Virus genome (UHGV): UHGV-0348865
Source: a virus
Reading direction: 5' to 3' (one strand)
DNA length: 64,000 nt
Shown in pieces: positions 662 to 59,579 of this stretch. Every line of letters starts with the position of its first letter. Position 1 is the first letter of the stretch. The notes below the pieces were generated by a model, which did not search any database, was not told the DNA's origin, and saw only the letters and a program-made list of their open reading frames with translations. The position numbers and the translations under genes were made by a program.

Positions 662-3600
662 TTATCTTCGTCCGCCAACAGCAAACTCTATCGTTAACCC
701 ATTGATAGCAGCATTACTGTTAACATCATTATCTATAACATTATAGAAAAGGTATGGATGGTTCAGTCTCACAGAGACATGCCTGTCAACACCGATCGTG
801 TATGTCTTAGATGTGTGTGGGTGTCCATATTCATTTGAGAATTGACTACCACCAGCTTCAAATATGTAAGTACCTGAACCAGTTGTCTGAGGTCTGAACC
901 TGTTGATATGTTTCTGATTCCATTCGTTAGTGATGTTATCAAAATCCATACCAGTTCTTTCTAACCTCATCTCCAGTGGTTTTTCTATAACCTTATCATT
1001 AAGCCTATCATAGAAGTAATCCAAAGCACCAACATCCACTTGATAGAATCCCCTCAAGAATGAACCTACTATCGTAACCCTCTGTCTAAAGTTTGTTGCA
1101 TCCTTTCTCCAAACAAGTTCTTTGATAGATGGGTCATCCCAAGTGATCTCTTGGAAGTCAGACCAGATTGGACCTCTCTCTAAAACAGGAGGGTCAACCA
1201 GACCGATACACTGAGCATAAGGGATAGTACGGAAAGACCAAGTATCAAACTCATAATTCCATACAGCAGCTTTAGTGCAAGCGAAGCTTTCTTTCGGCTC
1301 TCCCGGACCTACATAGAGAACCCAAACTTCTTTCTTATCCTGATGCAAGTGTACTCGAGTAGCTAGAGGGTTAACCAGACAAACCTCGTTAATCAGCATG
1401 TTCTTAACACGGTTAGATGCAATTGACTTCTTGGTTGCACCATTGTGTAAGATCACATCGTTCTGAGTAACTACGAAATGACTACCTTCTACTTCAACCA
1501 CACACTCAGGAGCAAGGATACCAGAGTCATTAAAGAGTTTCTTGAACATCAGAGGTTGGTATGTGTTATTAGTTGGAGAACCAATATACGTTTCAAACTC
1601 TGTATAAACGAACAAGTAGTCTTTAAGAGGCAGGATATCAATCAAGCTACCATTAGAATCGGCTAGGTCAATGTAACCAGCATACCCATTCTCTAGAGCC
1701 TGAGTCTGCCCTACGATGTTAGAAGCTAAGTCCGAAGACACAACTCGATCATAGGCAAAGTCATCCCACAGTGTAGGAGCCTTGTTCTCATTGGCAAAGT
1801 TAGACCAACGAAGACGAAGCGGATAGTTAGTGGTAACACCAGAAGCATTAGCCTCTCTCATATTCAGAGCAAAAAGACGGTTGTTAAAAGATCTCACTCT
1901 CTCACATTTCCAGTTAAACTTCTTGACTGAAGGGTTTCCATCACTATCAACAACTGTTTGCTCACCCCACCCCGGAAGGTCTACAAAGTATTCTGATTCG
2001 AATTCTTTTACCTGAGGAGTTTCATAGTGAGTTGTAGCAACTGCACAGTTAGAGATAACAGCGTGATACCAAGGGTAGTCATCAAAAGCATCGTAATCCT
2101 TCTGAGTCATCTGACTGACAGTGCATGTTACGTTAATCTCTCCTTTACGAAGAGCAACCAGTTTGATAGATTTACCAGTGACTGAAGTTGTAGAAACATA
2201 ACCAGTTTTATCAACAGACCACTGATAAGAGTACTCACCTTCTGGAGAAGCTGTGGCTGTAATGACAATCTCTTCACCAACATCAAGGGAGGCGCTGACA
2301 ATATCTAAGGTTACAGACGACAAAGGGGTTGCCAGTAAAGAAGCTCTTGCAAAACCTTCAATGTCATTCACGTTAGAGTAGTCGTAGAAGTTGTTACCTT
2401 CATACATCCCTGACGTATCAATACCGGATGTAGGCTCAGCAAAATAAACCGTCTCTTCACTTTCAGGAGGAGTTACTACTTCTTCCTCTTGAGTTTCTAC
2501 TGACTCTGACACAGGAGCGGCAAATGCCATAGCACTTGTTCTCATTGTCCTTCCAGCTAAATCCACACGTACAGTACAGACAGCAACTCTGTTACCTTCT
2601 TCAGTGGTAGCTGTAATCTCAGTAAAACCAGCAAGCAGAGCGTTGATCGTCCCTTGTGTGCTAGTCCCTGATACTGTTGCAATATTTGGGTTAGAAGAGG
2701 TCCAAGTAATGTTTTGATTAGGGGCGTTAGCAGGAGAAAGGGTGGCAGTTAAAATATACTGAGAACCTCTACTCACAGTAACATCTGACTGGCTTAAAGA
2801 GATACTATCAATCTGAGGGATAGAAACAATCTCACAAGAAGCAGTCTTAGTCCCGTTATCAGCAGTGATTGTTACATTACCTTCTCCATTCGCTGTAATG
2901 ACAGCAGTTAAAGAGTTGGCGTTAGGGGTTACAGATACAATAGAAGCATTATTGCTGGACCAAGTTACAGGGGTTTTGCCAGTAACAGCCGTGAGGGTAG
3001 TAGTCCCTCCTTTACGAATTGTAACAGTATCTTGACTCAAGAAGATGCCTGAATCACCATCGATGATATTAACAGCAATCTGAGCCACTACGGATTCATT
3101 GGCAGTAGAGATAGTTACTACAAGATTACCCTCTTTCTCAAAAGATGTTAGAGTAGCAAGTTTAGAGTCACTAGGGTCTACCGTAATACTTCCATAGGAT
3201 GAGTTACTAACCTCCCAAATAAGATCGGTATTGTTAGCATCAGCAGGGAGAAGAGAAACCTCTAGATTCTTGGTCTGATTGAAGTTCATTGAGATAGTTG
3301 ATTCTTTAGGAACGATCTGAGAAACAACTGGATAAATCTTAATTGAGGCAGAAGCCTTCTTAGTGACTGTAGCAACCTTACGGCTAATATCAGTCAAGCT
3401 TTCATCTGTCAGTTTATATAACTTCTTATCAGTACCTACAACAAGAAAGCTATTACCTGCGCTATAATAATCGAAAGGCATAGAAACGAAAGACAGAGGG
3501 GTTAAATCCTTATCTTCATCTACATAAGAAAGAGGGGCATTGCCCCCCGTCTTAAATACTCTCTGCTCAACAAATCGAGCATTTATAGCATTAGTGAAAG

Positions 3601-3688: not shown

Positions 3689-4492
3689 TTAGCTAATACG
3701 TCTCCAAATGTGAGCTGCTCTGAATGGTGGCAAAGTGTTAATAGGTTGACGAGAGATATCATCACGACCAAGACTTACACTACCAGAGATTGTATGAGTA
3801 TGTGTGTCATTATCAGTTCTCTGACTATAACCACCACCCGGACTATACCAGTTTGGTGAGCTGTTATGACCACTAGCATCCCCACGACCAAACACCATAT
3901 TGTGACTGTGAGTATTACTGGATAGAGAGAAGCTGGAGCCATTAACTGTCATCAAAGGTACGTTCTCAGTTCGAATAGTATTGAAGACACGACCACCAGT
4001 ACCACCTGCTTGGAACTCAACTCTCTGAGCATTAGGAACAGTTCCATCAGGGTTTACTACACCAGTACCCATAATGACACCAGTCACTTTAGCCCAAGAA
4101 CCAAACCCTAAGGAGATTGAATCACCTGGGTTAATGTCTTCTTCAGTGATATAGTAAGAACCAATTCGATAGAGCTTATTCTCCATCCAGTTCTTCATGA
4201 ACGCTTCCATCTGGCCTTTAGTAACAACATCCTTGTCACCAGTTCCCGGAGTAACATTCTTGATCATAAGACCACCAACATCCATTGCATCACCAGTAAA
4301 CTTAAGCTTCTCTGACATAATCTTAAAGGTATCAGAATCTATATCAACCGGTTCTGTAACATTGGGGAATGTGTTCTGTAACGTTTGTTTAATGAGGCGG
4401 ATTTGAGCCGCCCCTTCGTAGATGTAATCCCTGTCTCTAGGATAGAGCGGGTTTAAGTCGGTAATAACTACCGCATTAGTTTCGATAGCCAA
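3689..4492 (-). CDS. tail fibre-like protein (tail collar-type domain)
   Basis: 267-aa ORF, Gly-rich with collar-like segment; adjacent to tail genes. Confidence 0.45.
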   Translation of the reverse strand: MAIETNAVVITDLNPLYPRDRDYIYEGAAQIRLIKQTLQNTFPNVTEPVDIDSDTFKIMSEKLKFTGDAMDVGGLMIKNVTPGTGDKDVVTKGQMEAFMKNWMENKLYRIGSYYITEEDINPGDSISLGFGSWAKVTGVIMGTGVVNPDGTVPNAQRVEFQAGGTGGRVFNTIRTENVPLMTVNGSSFSLSSNTHSHNMVFGRGDASGHNSSPNWYSPGGGYSQRTDNDTHTHTISGSVSLGRDDISRQPINTLPPFRAAHIWRRIS

Positions 4493-4504
4493 AAGGCACC
4501 TCCA

Positions 4505-4996
4505 TTAATATTTACCTTCGGTGTAAAGATCAGCTTCTGCAACCCTTCTATTATGAAGACCCTGACTTCTCTGCTTCTCTCCCTTGACCGTTATTTTATC
4601 CCAACGAAGAAATTCGGAATATACATCCCCTTTAACTTCTCCATTGATAACCTTCCTTAACTTAGATGTGCTCAAAGCACCACTGCCAACATTGAAGTTG
4701 AAAGAAGTGAGTGCATCAAACTCATGAACTAGTAAAGGAACCTTTATGTTCTTTTGAGTAGCACGAACAGAGTCTTGTGTGTCTCTATCTAGCAGAGCTA
4801 GACAATCCTCTATAGAATACGTTAATCCTTGTCTAACCGGATAACCATTCATATCGCGCGTAGCCCCTACACATATAGTCCATATACCTGCGGAATCTTT
4901 ATAAGCCTTGGTTCTCATACCCTCATGCTTCATGATGAATTCCATTCCAGCTGGGCTTAAGTTTAGTTGTACAGGTAGCAATGCGGCGTTATCCAT
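4505..4996 (-). CDS. endolysin, T4-lysozyme-like (glycoside hydrolase family 24)
   Basis: N-terminal motif FIMKHEG...KAYKDSAGIWTICVGAT matches the T4 lysozyme catalytic region (E...YKD...YTIGIG). Confidence 0.75.
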   Translation of the reverse strand: MDNAALLPVQLNLSPAGMEFIMKHEGMRTKAYKDSAGIWTICVGATRDMNGYPVRQGLTYSIEDCLALLDRDTQDSVRATQKNIKVPLLVHEFDALTSFNFNVGSGALSTSKLRKVINGEVKGDVYSEFLRWDKITVKGEKQRSQGLHNRRVAEADLYTEGKY

Positions 4997-31340: not shown

Positions 31341-31419
31341 GGGGGTGTACCTCACCCGTCTTCTAAACGGGCGTTAATCGAGTAATTGGAGTATGCAGGT
31401 TCGAGTCCTGTCTCCCCCT
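31341..31419 (+). ncRNA. tRNA-like element with canonical T-arm; possible tRNA (anticodon-like loop CTTCTAA would give UCU/Arg) but D-arm not resolved by eye
   Basis: T-arm GCAGG-TTCGAGT-CCTGT; 7-bp acceptor-like pairing GGGGGTG/CTCCCCC; flanked by 10-nt inverted repeat AGAGTTCTTA/TAAGAACTCT. Confidence 0.4.
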
Positions 31420-54758: not shown

Positions 54759-55253
54759 GTGATTCCTATTAGAAGTTGGCTTTCTTATGATGAAAAATCT
54801 GGAAAGCTCTTCTTTACTTCATCTGCAGAAAAAGGTCGTAAGTGGAATAAGAGCCATCCCGGCAAAGAGGCTGGTCATATAAACCGAAAAGGTTATATAG
54901 GCATCTTTTTCGAGGGTAGGCATTGGAAAGCTCACAGACTTATAGCAACACATTTGATACCAAACCCTAACAACTATCCAGAGATAAATCATATAAATGG
55001 AATTAAATCTGATAACAGGTTGGAAAATCTTGAATGGGTGACTCCTTCTGAAAATGTGAGGCATTCATTTGATATAGGTTTAAATGTTGGAAAGGTTCGC
55101 GACCTTAATGCAGCCACCAAATTATCCTCTGGAGATGTTGTAAAGATCAAACAGATGTATGTGAAGGGTTCTAGGGATTTTGGCTCTAGAGGTCTTGGTA
55201 AGTTGTTCGGTGTGAGCCATACAGCTATACTCCATGCTTTAAAGGAGCTTTAA
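54759..55253 (+). CDS. HNH homing endonuclease with C-terminal HTH-like region
   Basis: INHINGIKSDNRLENLEWVTPSENVRH motif; paralogue of 50903..51397. Confidence 0.55.
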   Translation: MIPIRSWLSYDEKSGKLFFTSSAEKGRKWNKSHPGKEAGHINRKGYIGIFFEGRHWKAHRLIATHLIPNPNNYPEINHINGIKSDNRLENLEWVTPSENVRHSFDIGLNVGKVRDLNAATKLSSGDVVKIKQMYVKGSRDFGSRGLGKLFGVSHTAILHALKEL

Positions 55254-56037: not shown

Positions 56038-56451
56038 ATGCCATTACCAGCTAGACACCAAAACCGTTTCTTAGTTCTCAAGTGGGATGATATTGAAATG
56101 AATCTCACTGAACATGAACTAGATTTGTTCCATGAATTATTATCAGAGATTCGCTCTGGTATTCCTGAACGTCAGTATGTGGTTATCAGTGATAAGCACC
56201 CTCAAGAGTTTGAAGAAGCTTGGGGCATGAAGCTGGCCTATATCCAGAGAGCTATTAGAGAAAGAGAAGAAGTTGCTAATCAGAGGGTTGTGGCCCATCT
56301 AGTCAGAGAGCAGCCTCGTGAGGTTAGATCTTCTTATTCTGCATCTACTTGGGCACAAACAAATGCAGCAATGAGAACATATGCTGTTGATTCCTCATCC
56401 TTGGATGTAGTAGAAGATAACCAAGCATTTACAGATTTACTTTACCAATAA
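56038..56451 (+). CDS. hypothetical protein
   Basis: 137-aa ORF. Confidence 0.35.
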   Translation: MPLPARHQNRFLVLKWDDIEMNLTEHELDLFHELLSEIRSGIPERQYVVISDKHPQEFEEAWGMKLAYIQRAIREREEVANQRVVAHLVREQPREVRSSYSASTWAQTNAAMRTYAVDSSSLDVVEDNQAFTDLLYQ

Positions 56452-56467
56452 TTTAAAGGAGTATAAA

Positions 56468-57820
56468 GTGAGCAACCCGGACGCTCTTCCATTTTTGACA
56501 GAGATGACTGTCGCTGATATAATCTCTAAGCAAGCAAAGCACGGAGTGAGTTTCAACCGAAGAAATGCTCGGTGGTATGTTCACCTCCTTAAAGAGATTA
56601 TTGTTAATATTGACAGAGAGTTGATTCCTCTCTTACCCAAGATGAGATTAGATGGCTCTACTTATATGAAGCCGTTTAAGAAGTCTGGAGCTTTACAGAA
56701 GTGGCCTCAAGCCTATTGTGATAGGGTTGGGCTGAAGAGAGAAGACATTGGTGGAGCTTTCACCTGTGTCGAATACGTAGACTTTGACCCATCGAAAGAT
56801 GCACGAGTTAAAGAAGCTCTTATGGATGAGGGCTTTCTTCCTCCAGAGTTTAACGTATCTAAGAAGCCTTGGAATACTTTCGAAATTAAGAAAGATATGA
56901 GAAAGTATGGAACATACCAAGCATGGTATACTGCTTGGATGCGAGGCAATGCTAAGCAGAAGCAGACAGCTGAGATGGTTGACGCTGATATTAAGAAGTT
57001 CTTAGAAAAGCATTTCAGGTTTAAAACTAAGAATTACATGAAGGCTTACGTGTTTGGTTTAGGTTTAAACCCTAACCGACGTAATCCTGTAACGTTTGAT
57101 GAGATTAAGAAAGCACTAGCCACATCAAACAAGTGGCCTACAGCTCCTACAAACCTCGAGGAGACTCTTGAAGAAGGGTTAGGGGGTGAGCTAGGGAGTG
57201 TCGGAAGTTTGCTTAAGAGACGCGTTGTAGCGGCTCACAGGCTGGGTCTTATCAGTGGACTTATAGCAAAGGAACGCGAAGATGGTAAACTTTCGGCAGA
57301 AGCTAACAGCTGCGCTACGCCAACTTTTCGATTCAAACATCGTATCGTGGTTAATATTCCCTCCCGTGGTTTGTTTGGTCACGAGTGTCGCAGTTTGTTT
57401 GAGTCTGACTATAACTCAGACAGTGATCACTCTCGTCCTTTCGTTATTACTAACGTTGTTCCTGATGGTTGTTATATACGAAAAGGTACTAACGTAATTT
57501 ACGAGAAAGGTAAGCCGGGGAAGAAAGACAAACCTGTAGGTGCTTACAAATATTACATACCCGCTGGTAAAGAAGTATTCTTAGGGTATGATGGTTCTGG
57601 GCTTGAACTTCGTATGCTCGCTCACTACCTCATTAAAGAGTGTAGGGATATGCTTGCTGAGGCAATCGAAGAGAACAACCCAGCTAAGAAAGCTCTGGCA
57701 GAACGTGGTTTAGCTTCTGCTATTATGTATCGTGATATTCTCCTTGAAGGTGATATTCACTCCCACAACCAGAAACTTGCTGGTCTTCCTACTCGTGACA
57801 ATGCTAAAACGTTTATCTGA
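56468..57820 (+). CDS. DNA polymerase (T7 gp5-like, family A) polymerase-domain fragment 1
   Basis: GYDGSGLELRMLAHY and LEGDIHSHNQKLAGLPTRDNAKTFI align with T7 DNA polymerase; ORF stops right after TFI. Confidence 0.8.
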   Translation: MSNPDALPFLTEMTVADIISKQAKHGVSFNRRNARWYVHLLKEIIVNIDRELIPLLPKMRLDGSTYMKPFKKSGALQKWPQAYCDRVGLKREDIGGAFTCVEYVDFDPSKDARVKEALMDEGFLPPEFNVSKKPWNTFEIKKDMRKYGTYQAWYTAWMRGNAKQKQTAEMVDADIKKFLEKHFRFKTKNYMKAYVFGLGLNPNRRNPVTFDEIKKALATSNKWPTAPTNLEETLEEGLGGELGSVGSLLKRRVVAAHRLGLISGLIAKEREDGKLSAEANSCATPTFRFKHRIVVNIPSRGLFGHECRSLFESDYNSDSDHSRPFVITNVVPDGCYIRKGTNVIYEKGKPGKKDKPVGAYKYYIPAGKEVFLGYDGSGLELRMLAHYLIKECRDMLAEAIEENNPAKKALAERGLASAIMYRDILLEGDIHSHNQKLAGLPTRDNAKTFI

Positions 57821-57933
57821 CGTAAATGGATACTTCGAGAGTAATCTCGTCGATTAAATTGGGTGAACTCAGGGAAACTCTCTAGTAGACAATCCTGAGC
57901 CAAGCAAGTATTCTATAGCAACTCAACAAGGAG

Positions 57934-58440
57934 GTGCTTATGGAATATACAACTGTAACTAAAACTAAAGAAGAACAGACTGCCGAGGCAGGTAAATACC
58001 CTCAAGGTCAGTTCAACCCAAAACCTTGTCGTAATTGCTCAAAAGATTTTCAACCAAATGCACCATCTGAACATTATTGCTCTGATGGATGCAAAGATAG
58101 AGGCTGGAGAAATTCATACTTCAAACGAATGTATGGAATCACAGCCGATGATTACGAAAAGATGTACGCTGATCAGGATGGGAAGTGTGCTATCTGTAAG
58201 GGCGAAGGGTTTGTAATGGCAACACATCACAGAATTAGACTTGTGGTTGATCATTGCCATGAATCTGGAGTAATACGTGGTCTGTTGTGCCACAACTGCA
58301 ACAGAGCTTTAGGGCTACTGAAAGATGATGTTAGCCGATTAGAAACAGCTATAGAATACTTGAAGGTGCAACGACTATCCGAAAGGAGTACACCGGAAGC
58401 TGATGCCGGTGGAAGCGCCCAACCCCTCGACAGAGGGTGA
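57934..58440 (+). CDS. HNH / endonuclease VII-like homing endonuclease inserted within DNA polymerase gene
   Basis: Cys-rich N-terminus, motif HRIRLVVDHCHESGVIRGLLCHNCNRALG (His-Me finger). Confidence 0.65.
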   Translation: MLMEYTTVTKTKEEQTAEAGKYPQGQFNPKPCRNCSKDFQPNAPSEHYCSDGCKDRGWRNSYFKRMYGITADDYEKMYADQDGKCAICKGEGFVMATHHRIRLVVDHCHESGVIRGLLCHNCNRALGLLKDDVSRLETAIEYLKVQRLSERSTPEADAGGSAQPLDRG

Positions 58441-58496
58441 TGATATAGTCTATCCTACACGGCGACGTGTAGCAGTTCATAAGAGAACGGGCAGGA

Positions 58497-59018
58497 GTGT
58501 TGCGGCTCCTGTCGAATATACGAGATGCATTCAACTACGGTGCTGGTGATGCTAAGCTAGGTTCAATTGTAGGAGGCGGGGCTGACGAAGGTTCAGTGAT
58601 GCGAGCACGTTTCTTGGCAGAGAACCCATGTATTGCAATCCTTATTGATCGTATGACAGAAAAGGCTGCTCAGGGATACTTGATTGGTGTTGATGGTCGT
58701 AAGATTACAATGAGACGAGATGCCACTGGTAAAGTTATGGTTCATAAAGCTCTTAACACACTCCTGCAATGTGCTGGTGCTGTTGTTATGAAATATGCTA
58801 TGATGTTCCTAAACAAGTGGATTGAGAGAGATGGAGTTCGTTGTGCTAAGGTAATTGATATGCACGATGAAGGTCAATTCTCAGTAAACCGTAATGATGT
58901 ACAGAAACTCAAAGAGCACACCGAGCTTTGTGTTAAGAAGGCTGGTGAGTATTTGAACATGGAGTGTCCTCTGGCTTCTGATTGTCAGATTGGATTAAAT
59001 TGGATGCATACGCACTAA
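58497..59018 (+). CDS. DNA polymerase (T7 gp5-like) polymerase-domain fragment 2
   Basis: GTG start; AFNYGAGDAKLGSIVGG and KALNTLLQCAGAVV align with T7 YGFLYGAGDEKIGQIVGAG and ALNTLLQSAGAL. Confidence 0.8.
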   Translation: MLRLLSNIRDAFNYGAGDAKLGSIVGGGADEGSVMRARFLAENPCIAILIDRMTEKAAQGYLIGVDGRKITMRRDATGKVMVHKALNTLLQCAGAVVMKYAMMFLNKWIERDGVRCAKVIDMHDEGQFSVNRNDVQKLKEHTELCVKKAGEYLNMECPLASDCQIGLNWMHTH

Positions 59019-59579
59019 AATCAGAACTGAAAGACCGGAACACAAATGAACTATTCTTATTGATTGGTTCGTAACAAGGAGATTGAAGTGGAAGAGATGC
59101 CATCGGATTGGTGTTATCGTCAGAGCGCCATCTGTAATGAACAAGGACGTCCTGATGAGGCTGAGTTTTATTTAGAACTTGCTGAACTGTGGAAAGAACG
59201 AGAGGAGAAAGAGTGATGGAAGGTATTTACCGTAAGCCACCTCCAAAATATAACATCCTTTATACTGATGCAACAGGCGAGTTTAGAAGTGTGTTAGTTT
59301 ACACGGATGAAGAACGAAACCAAATGGTTGCTGCTATTGAAGCCAATGGTGGTACAATCATGCGAATTTATAACATAACATAACATAAGGAATATCAATG
59401 ACTGCTTCTGAATTAAAAGAAACCCTATCCACTGAAGAAGGTAAAGCTTTCTTCTTATCTCAAGTACACTCTATGGGTAAAGATGCCCTTCGCCAAGCAG
59501 TCGTTGAGCTTACTGGTGTAGTGATTGACTTGAGCATTGAAAACGAAACACTTGAAGCTAAAGTGAACAGTTAAATAAG

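Follow-up and report, generated by a model that had tools for sequence, protein, structure and literature searches.

Known introns in phage DNA polymerase genes

The introns of the T7-like coliphages PhiI and W31, together with the endonuclease I-TslI, were reportedly described by Bonocora and Shub in 2004 and 2009. Family A phage polymerase introns with HNH-type endonucleases have been known since SPO1 and, in enteric T7-like phages, since PhiI/W31, whose introns belong to subgroup IA2, have an ORF of the HNH family within P6a, and undergo splicing both in vitro and in vivo (PMC3428280). Here, we describe an insert in UHGV virus genome UHGV-0348865, of which a stretch of 64,000 nucleotides (64 kb, hereafter the window) was analysed. 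The insert resembles the PhiI/W31 introns in its IA2 character, in its HNH-family P6a ORF and in residing in the family A polymerase gene of a podovirus that infects enterobacteria, but it lies at polymerase motif B, whereas the PhiI/W31 introns are at ‘site 881’ (E. coli numbering), i.e. motif C (PMC3428280). The td/nrdB-type IA2 introns of phage T4 share the ribozyme subgroup and likewise have their ORF looped out from a peripheral helix, and a BLAST search with the intron core of the window matches T4-like nrd introns, although the host genes and endonuclease families of the T4 introns differ from those of the window. The td intron endonuclease is a GIY-YIG enzyme.

An intron in the same polymerase motif B is found in the T7-like phages Berlin (Yersinia, NC_008694), Vi06 (Salmonella), and RCIP0053 and Kpp-61 (both Klebsiella). 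As in the window, these introns have an IA2-type core with P7.1/P7.2, an ORF in P6a and conserved A-I-(E/D)-Y-L-K codons that form the 3′ strand of P6a; unlike the window, they are without P2. In Berlin, Vi06 and RCIP0053 the insertion point is 5 nt upstream of that in the window (ACGUU/U) with GGGCGUC or AGACGUC as the guide, and in Kpp-61 it is 7 nt downstream, with the guide changed to match. Intron 1 of the Aeromonas phage vB_AsaP_MQM1 polymerase (OQ628262; hereafter MQM1) has an insertion point (UUUAUCU/) identical to that of the window, the same P1-P2 layout, and about 75-82% identity in P2-P8, but it carries no endonuclease ORF (short P6a loop), differs in the P9 periphery (43% identity), and belongs to another phage group and host.

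The closest relatives are the Escherichia phages Bas93 (AidaStucki, PQ850593) and Bas94 (ManiMatter, PQ850617), which have the same gene, insertion point and 706-nt length as the window, with introns that are 96.3-96.5% identical and endonucleases that are 95.8% identical to those of the window. Their GenBank records give the polymerase as a join of two pieces with a total span of 2551 nt (= 1845 + 706) with an ‘endonuclease VII’ inside. Both phages are plaque-forming isolates (PMC11990801); the BASEL paper that reports them mentions ‘homing endonuclease insertions’, and the word ‘intron’ has 0 occurrences in it (PMC11990801). Our literature searches found no paper on an intron in a phiEco32-like polymerase.

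Extent of the insert and restoration of the polymerase reading frame

The polymerase region of the window (56400-59100) gives matches to 128 phage records, nearly all of Escherichia, Shigella or Yersinia phages. As the best matches are phiEco32-like podoviruses (Kuravirus, Gordonclarkvirinae), and as identity to this same group is 91-94% over the structural half of the window, the sequence assigns the window to a phiEco32-like (Kuravirus-type) coliphage. The ORF list shows three consecutive ORFs in the region, 56468-57820 (450 aa), 57934-58440 (168 aa, GTG start) and 58497-59018 (173 aa), which agrees with the earlier note in that an endonuclease VII-like ORF (Pfam Endonuclease_7, E 7e-24) sits between two family A polymerase fragments whose ends meet in a conserved TFI-YG region. 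The 450-aa ORF has the C-terminus ...RDNAKTFI followed by a stop, the 173-aa ORF begins MLRLLSNIRDAFNYGAGDAKLG... and is identified by Pfam as the C-terminal part of DNA_pol_A, and the interruption falls inside polymerase motif B (the O-helix), at RDNAKTFI / YAFNYGAG.

An uninterrupted 1845-nt polymerase gene is present in phiEco32 and other relatives (about 126 of the 128 records). Joining 56468-57818 to 58525-59018 in silico yields a 1845-nt ORF with the reading frame intact, and its 614-aa product is identical to phiEco32 gp53 at 612 of 614 residues with no gap at the junction. The protein reads ...AKTFIYAFNYGAG... across the exon junction, whereby RDNAKTFI/YAFNYGAG is restored, and the junction-spanning peptide of the joined polymerase is TFIYAFNYGAGDAK. 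At the DNA level, the joined exons align gap-free to the intron-less phiEco32 and EcM-vB1, and the junction ...ACGTTTATCT/ATGCATTC... is the same in the window and in both of these phages; the ligated-exon RNA junction predicted from the excision is ...UUUAUCU/AUGCAUUC.... Since this alignment is free of gaps and the flanking bases permit no alternative placement, the insert is 57819-58524 (706 nt), which corrects the extent of 57821-58496 given in the earlier note. The gene is thus divided as follows.

56468-57818, plus strand: DNA polymerase exon 1, 1351 nt; collinear with phiEco32 gp53, the last base U57818 being the first base of a Tyr codon (...AKTFI-Y)
57819-58524, plus strand: predicted group I (IA2-type) intron, 706 nt, from G57819 to the terminal (omega) G58524; intron-less allele alignment, Rfam RF00028, covariance model R1 (see below), covariation
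58525-59018, plus strand: DNA polymerase exon 2, 494 nt including the stop; starts AU-GCA-UUC (..Y-A-F-N-Y-G..); Pfam DNA_pol_A

With these boundaries, the apparent ‘TGA’ stop of the first fragment consists of the last exon base U57818 and the first two intron bases, and GTG 58497, the apparent start of the second fragment, is inside the insert, the first 28 nt of that ORF being intron (P9.2 and the 3′ tail). Of the non-coding flanks of the endonuclease ORF, put previously at about 110 nt (5′) and 55 nt (3′), the latter therefore becomes 84 nt, and GTG 58497 is no start codon.

Two polymerase ORFs with an endonuclease ORF between them, as returned here by ORF calling and likewise by metagenome gene callers, would also be left by a free-standing homing endonuclease that had split the gene, with polypeptides of 450 aa and about 173 aa each translated on its own, and a split gene 43 is known from some T4-like phages. 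The only in-frame starts of the second fragment, however, are GTG 58497 and TTG 58500, which overlap or abut an AGGAG (0-2 nt spacing) and lie within helix P9.2. Moreover, the break separates residues of the O-helix that are conserved for dNTP binding, the ‘spacer’ on either side is a conserved, covarying ribozyme, and excision restores the intron-less sequence to the nucleotide. Neither a downstream start of its own nor flanks other than ribozyme were found for the second fragment. In the light of the missing usable start and Shine-Dalgarno sequence, the O-helix break, the ribozyme flanks and the exact excision, a true split gene, which the earlier note had offered as its second reading, is very improbable.

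Removal of the insert at the protein or translation level, i.e. by an intein or by ribosomal bypassing, has nothing to recommend it beyond the interrupted conserved motif. The junction carries an in-frame UGA and more stops follow in the polymerase frame, the ORF has its own frame and its own Shine-Dalgarno sequence, Pfam shows Endonuclease_7 only and no Hint/intein domain, and 706 nt far exceeds known bypass gaps, the bypass in T4 gene 60 skipping 50 nt. The in-frame stop and the lack of a Hint domain effectively exclude both mechanisms. That the interruption must nevertheless be removed follows from the polymerase being essential and from the plaque formation of the intron-bearing Bas93 and Bas94.

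Covariation analysis of the RNA element

At the gathering threshold, an Rfam search of the whole 64-kb window found no intron. With E-value thresholds, the group I covariance-model search suggested by the earlier note returns RF00028 (Intron_gpI) at 57804-58472 with 43.5 bits (E 1.3e-9), a match that covers the full length of the model (1-253), has an E-value of 8.9e-8 for the whole window (64 kb), and is the sole Intron_gpI match therein. The score remains below the gathering score of 50 bits because of a 434-nt ORF insertion in the P6a loop, which the match skips; the ORF-less homologue at the identical site, MQM1 intron 1, reaches 75.1 bits against the same Rfam model.

Base pairing was assessed in an ORF-trimmed alignment of 10 sequences (A1: the window, Bas93, Bas94, MQM1, Vi06, Berlin, RCIP0053, Kpp-61, the helicase intron of O18-011, and AbpL), in which, for the structure derived from the window, 93.2% of cells are paired as opposed to 36-40% with the partners slid. 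Both sides are changed in 45 of the 76 pairs, a value reached by none of 500 shuffles. As the A1 structure came from the window itself, the analysis was repeated on an alignment of 13 sequences (A2: MQM1 and 12 IMG/VR contigs) from which the window and its close relatives were excluded, and here 98.8% of cells are paired versus 36-43% when slid. A covariance model (R1) built from the 13 A2 sequences alone (Aeromonas phage MQM1 and 12 metagenomic introns) recovers 58280-58532 (115.8 bits, E 1e-37) and 57811-57978 (56.8 bits, E 7e-18) in the window, with no other match; the two matches are the two intron halves, and each stops exactly 8 nt into an exon. The same nested helices emerge when the intron, with its ORF deleted, is folded thermodynamically without constraints (minimum free energy; z = −4.07). 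The element thus has core helices P3-P8, the P3/P7 pseudoknot, and compensatory changes. On these grounds 57819-58524 is, with high confidence, a mobile IA2-type group I intron in the family A DNA polymerase gene of a phiEco32-like coliphage. The first reading of the earlier note, a group I intron with a homing endonuclease, accordingly gains strong support from the exact restoration of the ORF, the complete covarying core and the homologous introns of T7-like phages.

A decayed intron that no longer splices, with the polymerase a pseudogene in a defective genome, has in its favour the score under the Rfam gathering threshold, and relatives with decayed parts do occur, namely RCIP0053 with a truncated endonuclease of 76 aa and Vi06 with a polymerase whose annotation is that of a pseudogene. 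In the window, however, the low score is accounted for by the ORF in P6a as described above, all core helices are intact, and the substitutions relative to Bas93 and Bas94 keep pairing. The window and Bas93 show 26 intron differences, 9 of which are in ribozyme parts, all of them in loops or joining regions or with pairing kept, and two of the nine (58460/58467 and 58494/58509) are compensatory. The endonuclease ORF is intact in the window, Bas93 and Bas94, and the identical protein is present on 17 metagenome contigs; Bas93 and Bas94, moreover, are viable isolates. Given the intact covarying core, the intact ORF and these viable phages, a dead intron has very little probability.

Helices of the predicted group I intron

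The secondary structure of the predicted intron comprises the following elements.

57814-57832, plus strand: P1, exon UAUCU (57814-57818) and G57819 with the internal guide UGGAUA (57827-57832); read from the sequence
57836-57849, plus strand: P2 hairpin CGAGA-GUAA-UCUCG; two compensatory changes versus MQM1 (GGGGA/UCCCC), 100% paired in A2
57859-57865, plus strand: P3 5′ strand UUGGGUG, partner 58416-58422; 5 of 7 pairs change on both sides, in A1 and A2
57869-57898, plus strand: P4 (57869-57874 / 57893-57898) around P5 (57879-57881 / 57887-57889); 100% of cells paired, 4 and 2 covarying pairs
57899-57916, plus strand: P6 5′ strand GCC (57899-57901) and P6a 5′ strand CAAGUAUUCUAU (57905-57916); sequence and covariation
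58351-58367, plus strand: P6a 3′ strand (58351-58362, codes A-I-E-Y-L-K) and P6 3′ strand GGU (58365-58367); sequence and covariation
58373-58377, plus strand: P7 5′ strand GACUA, partner 58446-58450 (pseudoknot with P3); invariant in 10 of 10 in A1, one compensatory change in A2
58378-58411, plus strand: P7.1 (UCC-GAAA-GGA), GUA linker and P7.2 (CACCGG...CCGGUG), the IA2 signature; both helices covary, fold
58416-58422, plus strand: P3 3′ strand CGCCCAA; covariation in A1 and A2
58424-58437, plus strand: P8 hairpin CCCUC-GACA-GAGGG; Rfam match, A2 covariation, thermodynamic fold
58438-58450, plus strand: J8/7 UGAUGAUA (first three bases = endonuclease stop codon) and P7 3′ strand UAGUC (58446-58450); sequence, Rfam, A1
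58455-58513, plus strand: peripheral helices P9 (58455-58472), P9.1 (58475-58488) and P9.2 (58490-58513); A1 and A2 covariation, compensatory changes versus Bas93

In P1, the splice site is marked by the wobble pair U57818·G57828 (within UAUCUG/UGGAUA), the last intron base is G58524, and P10 is weak, with about 2 bp. In relatives inserted at other sites, the guide sequence varies with the exon sequence. An automatic site-finder favoured an alternative P1 (GUUUAU/GUAAAU) that would shift the two splice sites upstream by 2 nt, with ...TFIDAF... as the resulting protein sequence; this candidate was rejected because the intron-less alleles have ATCTATGCA (Tyr) at that position. The complementary segments CTCAGG (57868-57873) and CCTGAG (57894-57899) to which the earlier note drew attention are helix P4 with one flanking pair. 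In P6a, 57905-57916 is a perfect 12-bp complement of 58351-58362 that encloses the ORF, and all 8 of the 8 tested pairs covary. Subgroup IA2 is recognised by two additional helices, P7.1 and P7.2, which are connected by G-U-A and placed between P7 and P3′ (PMC3428280), and UCC-GAAA-GGA / GUA / CACCGG...CCGGUG at 58378-58411 conforms to this arrangement.

Endonuclease encoded in the P6a loop

Within the P6a loop, the following coding elements are predicted.

57928-57935, plus strand: putative Shine-Dalgarno sequence AAGGAGGU (AAGGAGGT) of the endonuclease gene; sequence
57940-58440, plus strand: predicted homing endonuclease gene, 166 aa plus stop, Endonuclease_7 / HNH (beta-beta-alpha-metal); Pfam PF02945, homology, ORF ends of relatives

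The protein matches Pfam PF02945 (Endonuclease_7) with 84 bits (E 6.9e-24) against a cut-off of 23.6, which bears out the family proposed in the earlier note; the ORF start at 57934 given there is likely to be replaced by ATG 57940, 4 nt after AAGGAGGT. In Bas93 and Bas94 the annotated ‘endonuclease VII’ gene is 501 nt long, which agrees with this start, and the same arrangement of Shine-Dalgarno sequence and ATG occurs in Klebsiella phage RCIP0053. The catalytic half aligns with the restriction enzyme Hpy99I and with T4 endonuclease VII, and keeps C-x-x-C...DH-H...C-x-x-CN; a second Cys-rich stretch, in the N-terminal half, presumably binds DNA. Besides those of Bas93/Bas94, the closest endonucleases in sequenced phages are those of Yersinia T7-like phages, with 58% identity. 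Judged by its sequence, this ‘endonuclease VII’ is a homing endonuclease and not the Holliday-junction resolvase of phage replication, and should be labelled as such in annotations.

The coding and ribozyme sequences overlap. The last 90 nt of the ORF (58351-58440) also form P6a′, P6′, P7, P7.1, P7.2, P3′ and P8, so that the description of the ribozyme parts as non-coding flanks of the ORF understates the extent of the RNA element. The A-I-E-Y-L-K codons make up the P6a 3′ strand, and in relatives the non-coding 5′ strand changes such that pairing with these codons is kept. The ORFs of Berlin and Kpp-61 finish with ...YL(N/K)V, their stop codon being a UAA in J6/7, whereas the window has CAA at that triplet; as a result, translation would run 23 codons on, through P7, P7.1, P7.2, P3′ and P8, to the UGA that opens J8/7. 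Endonuclease codons 144-166 are this read-through extension over the ribozyme core. Extension of an endonuclease ORF into the ribozyme core is the ‘core creep’ pattern of Edgell et al. (PMC3073962).

Two relatives were observed to have other ORF arrangements. The motif-B intron of Vi06 (locus L004, 1500-2100) has a P3-P6 core that is 84% identical to that of the window and a different, apparently decayed ORF, which crosses the ribozyme core in a different frame (...GATTISKESTSEANADGSAQPLETE), one that is also used by an unrelated ORF of HNH type in Acinetobacter phage AbpL. In the T7-like Klebsiella phage RCIP0053 (L006), three group I introns apparently lie within the polymerase gene or close to it (1349-1601, about 1890-2560, and 2918-3564); the motif-B endonuclease ORF of this phage is the one truncated to 76 aa, and the record annotates ‘hypothetical proteins’ only.

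Proposed splicing and homing

The splicing steps proposed here follow established group I intron chemistry. The polymerase gene would be transcribed as a single pre-mRNA, in which the intron RNA would fold into P1-P9.2. An external guanosine bound in P7 would attack after U57818, held in the U·G pair by the internal guide GGAUA, and the freed 3′-OH of exon 1 would then attack after the terminal G58524, exon ligation thereby restoring the Tyr codon U/AU and the 614-aa polymerase. From the P6a-loop ORF (57940-58440) with its own Shine-Dalgarno sequence, the Endonuclease-VII/HNH-type homing endonuclease would be made, whose presumed action is to nick or cut, close to the insertion site, those polymerase alleles of co-infecting phages that have no intron, such that recombinational repair of the cut allele would copy the intron in (homing). 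Splicing of the window's intron, the activity and specificity of its endonuclease, and homing are all inferred from the sequence. The intron-less EcM-vB1 is identical to the ligated exons of the window from −60 to +22 around the junction, so intact target sites do exist.

If this assignment holds, the polymerase should be annotated as one joined 614-aa CDS and not as two fragments or a pseudogene. Mobile introns of T7-like phages would then also circulate in Gordonclarkvirinae, at low frequency, and the element would mark a point of genetic exchange between co-infecting coliphages. The current understanding of group I introns is unchanged by it.

Distribution and insertion sites of related introns

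Among the 128 sequenced relatives, only Bas93 and Bas94 have the intron (2/128), and the metagenome or Logan contigs on which the identical 166-aa endonuclease is found (17) show the same three-ORF layout. The exons of Bas93 are 94.9% identical to those of the window, i.e. less similar than the intron (96.3%), and the exons of the window are nearer to those of intron-less Kuraviruses (97.3% for EcM-vB1). Such a contrast between exon and intron identity is compatible with horizontal spread by homing, and vertical inheritance with loss would fit the data likewise. No obvious co-conversion tract is seen, the window and Bas93 differing at +5, +8 and +14 of exon 2.

A heuristic junction-finder was applied to 80 IMG/VR loci with related endonucleases, with insertion offsets counted in nt from the motif-B Lys codon. 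By approximate counts, 25 introns are at +13 (the site of the window), 12 at +8 and 9 at +24, and each intron so placed has a 6-bp P1 and restores K-T-F-I-Y-x-x-x-Y-G. At least four insertion points (+8, +13, +20 and +24), each with a matching guide, are used by related introns that share one endonuclease family (L022-L101, L005, L010). Similarity between the endonucleases does not clearly track the insertion site: by a crude local-identity measure the nearest neighbour of an endonuclease shares its site in 17 of 35 cases. A separate scan of IMG/VR for the junction pattern ACGTTTATCT-N6-10-GGATACTT gave 6 loci, all chance matches without a ribozyme. We also considered whether an MQM1-like ribozyme had been invaded by a T7-like endonuclease gene in this lineage specifically. 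This chimera idea was dropped because the combination of P2, this insertion site and an endonuclease of this family is common among metagenomic phages, being present at 25 of the 80 loci. On present sequence comparisons, the element of the window is an ordinary member of a widespread mobile group I intron family.

Tentatively, these placements suggest that the window's intron belongs to a swarm of related introns that share one endonuclease family and occupy at least four points within 17 nt of the O-helix code, although we hold this to be somewhat less probable than not. The swarm may span T7-like, MQM1-like and phiEco32-like polymerases. If so, either ribozymes would have been re-targeted repeatedly, through guide changes, around one conserved endonuclease target, or endonuclease genes would repeatedly have been passed on to a neighbouring intron. 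The element would, in addition, have spread from one polymerase lineage to another, highly divergent one whose enzyme has no exonuclease domains. No description of such a multi-site intron pattern was found in the searchable literature.

Further elements in the window and in related phages

Metagenomic locus L103 (~3926-4533; also L104 and L106), which has the identical motif-B endonuclease, contains a second group I intron, which lies at motif C (H/DE) and carries an HNH_3 ORF. This second intron scores 26 bits with Rfam and corresponds to about 58868 of the window (...VIDMH / DEGQFS...), where it is absent; the motif-C position is the ‘site 881’ given for the PhiI/W31 introns (PMC3428280). 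A related group I intron with an HNH endonuclease was observed in the primase/helicase gene of the Kuraviruses O18-011 (Escherichia; L008, 2490-3290) and XT18 (L009, about 1830-2558), its 5′ core being 82% identical to that of the window's intron; an intron of this type was not detected anywhere in the 64-kb window.

Three further observations concern the window itself. A perfect sigma-70 consensus (TTGACA, 17 nt, TG-TATAAT; 12/12 matches) is present at 56495-56523 (plus strand), within the first 60 nt of the polymerase ORF; the total count of promoter-like sites in the region is no greater than in shuffles. At 31341-31419 (plus strand), Rfam calls a tRNA with 33.2 bits (gathering score 29) and a 20-nt insertion after the anticodon stem, and ARAGORN reports no tRNA in the whole window. 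Finally, a 164-aa HNH_3 endonuclease ORF (Pfam E 2e-10) lies at 54759-55253 (plus strand), between a PhoH-like gene and the polymerase; neither phiEco32 nor Bas93 has this ORF, which is found in only about 10 of 99 related phages (as ‘HNH homing endonuclease’) and from its sequence looks like a free-standing homing endonuclease.
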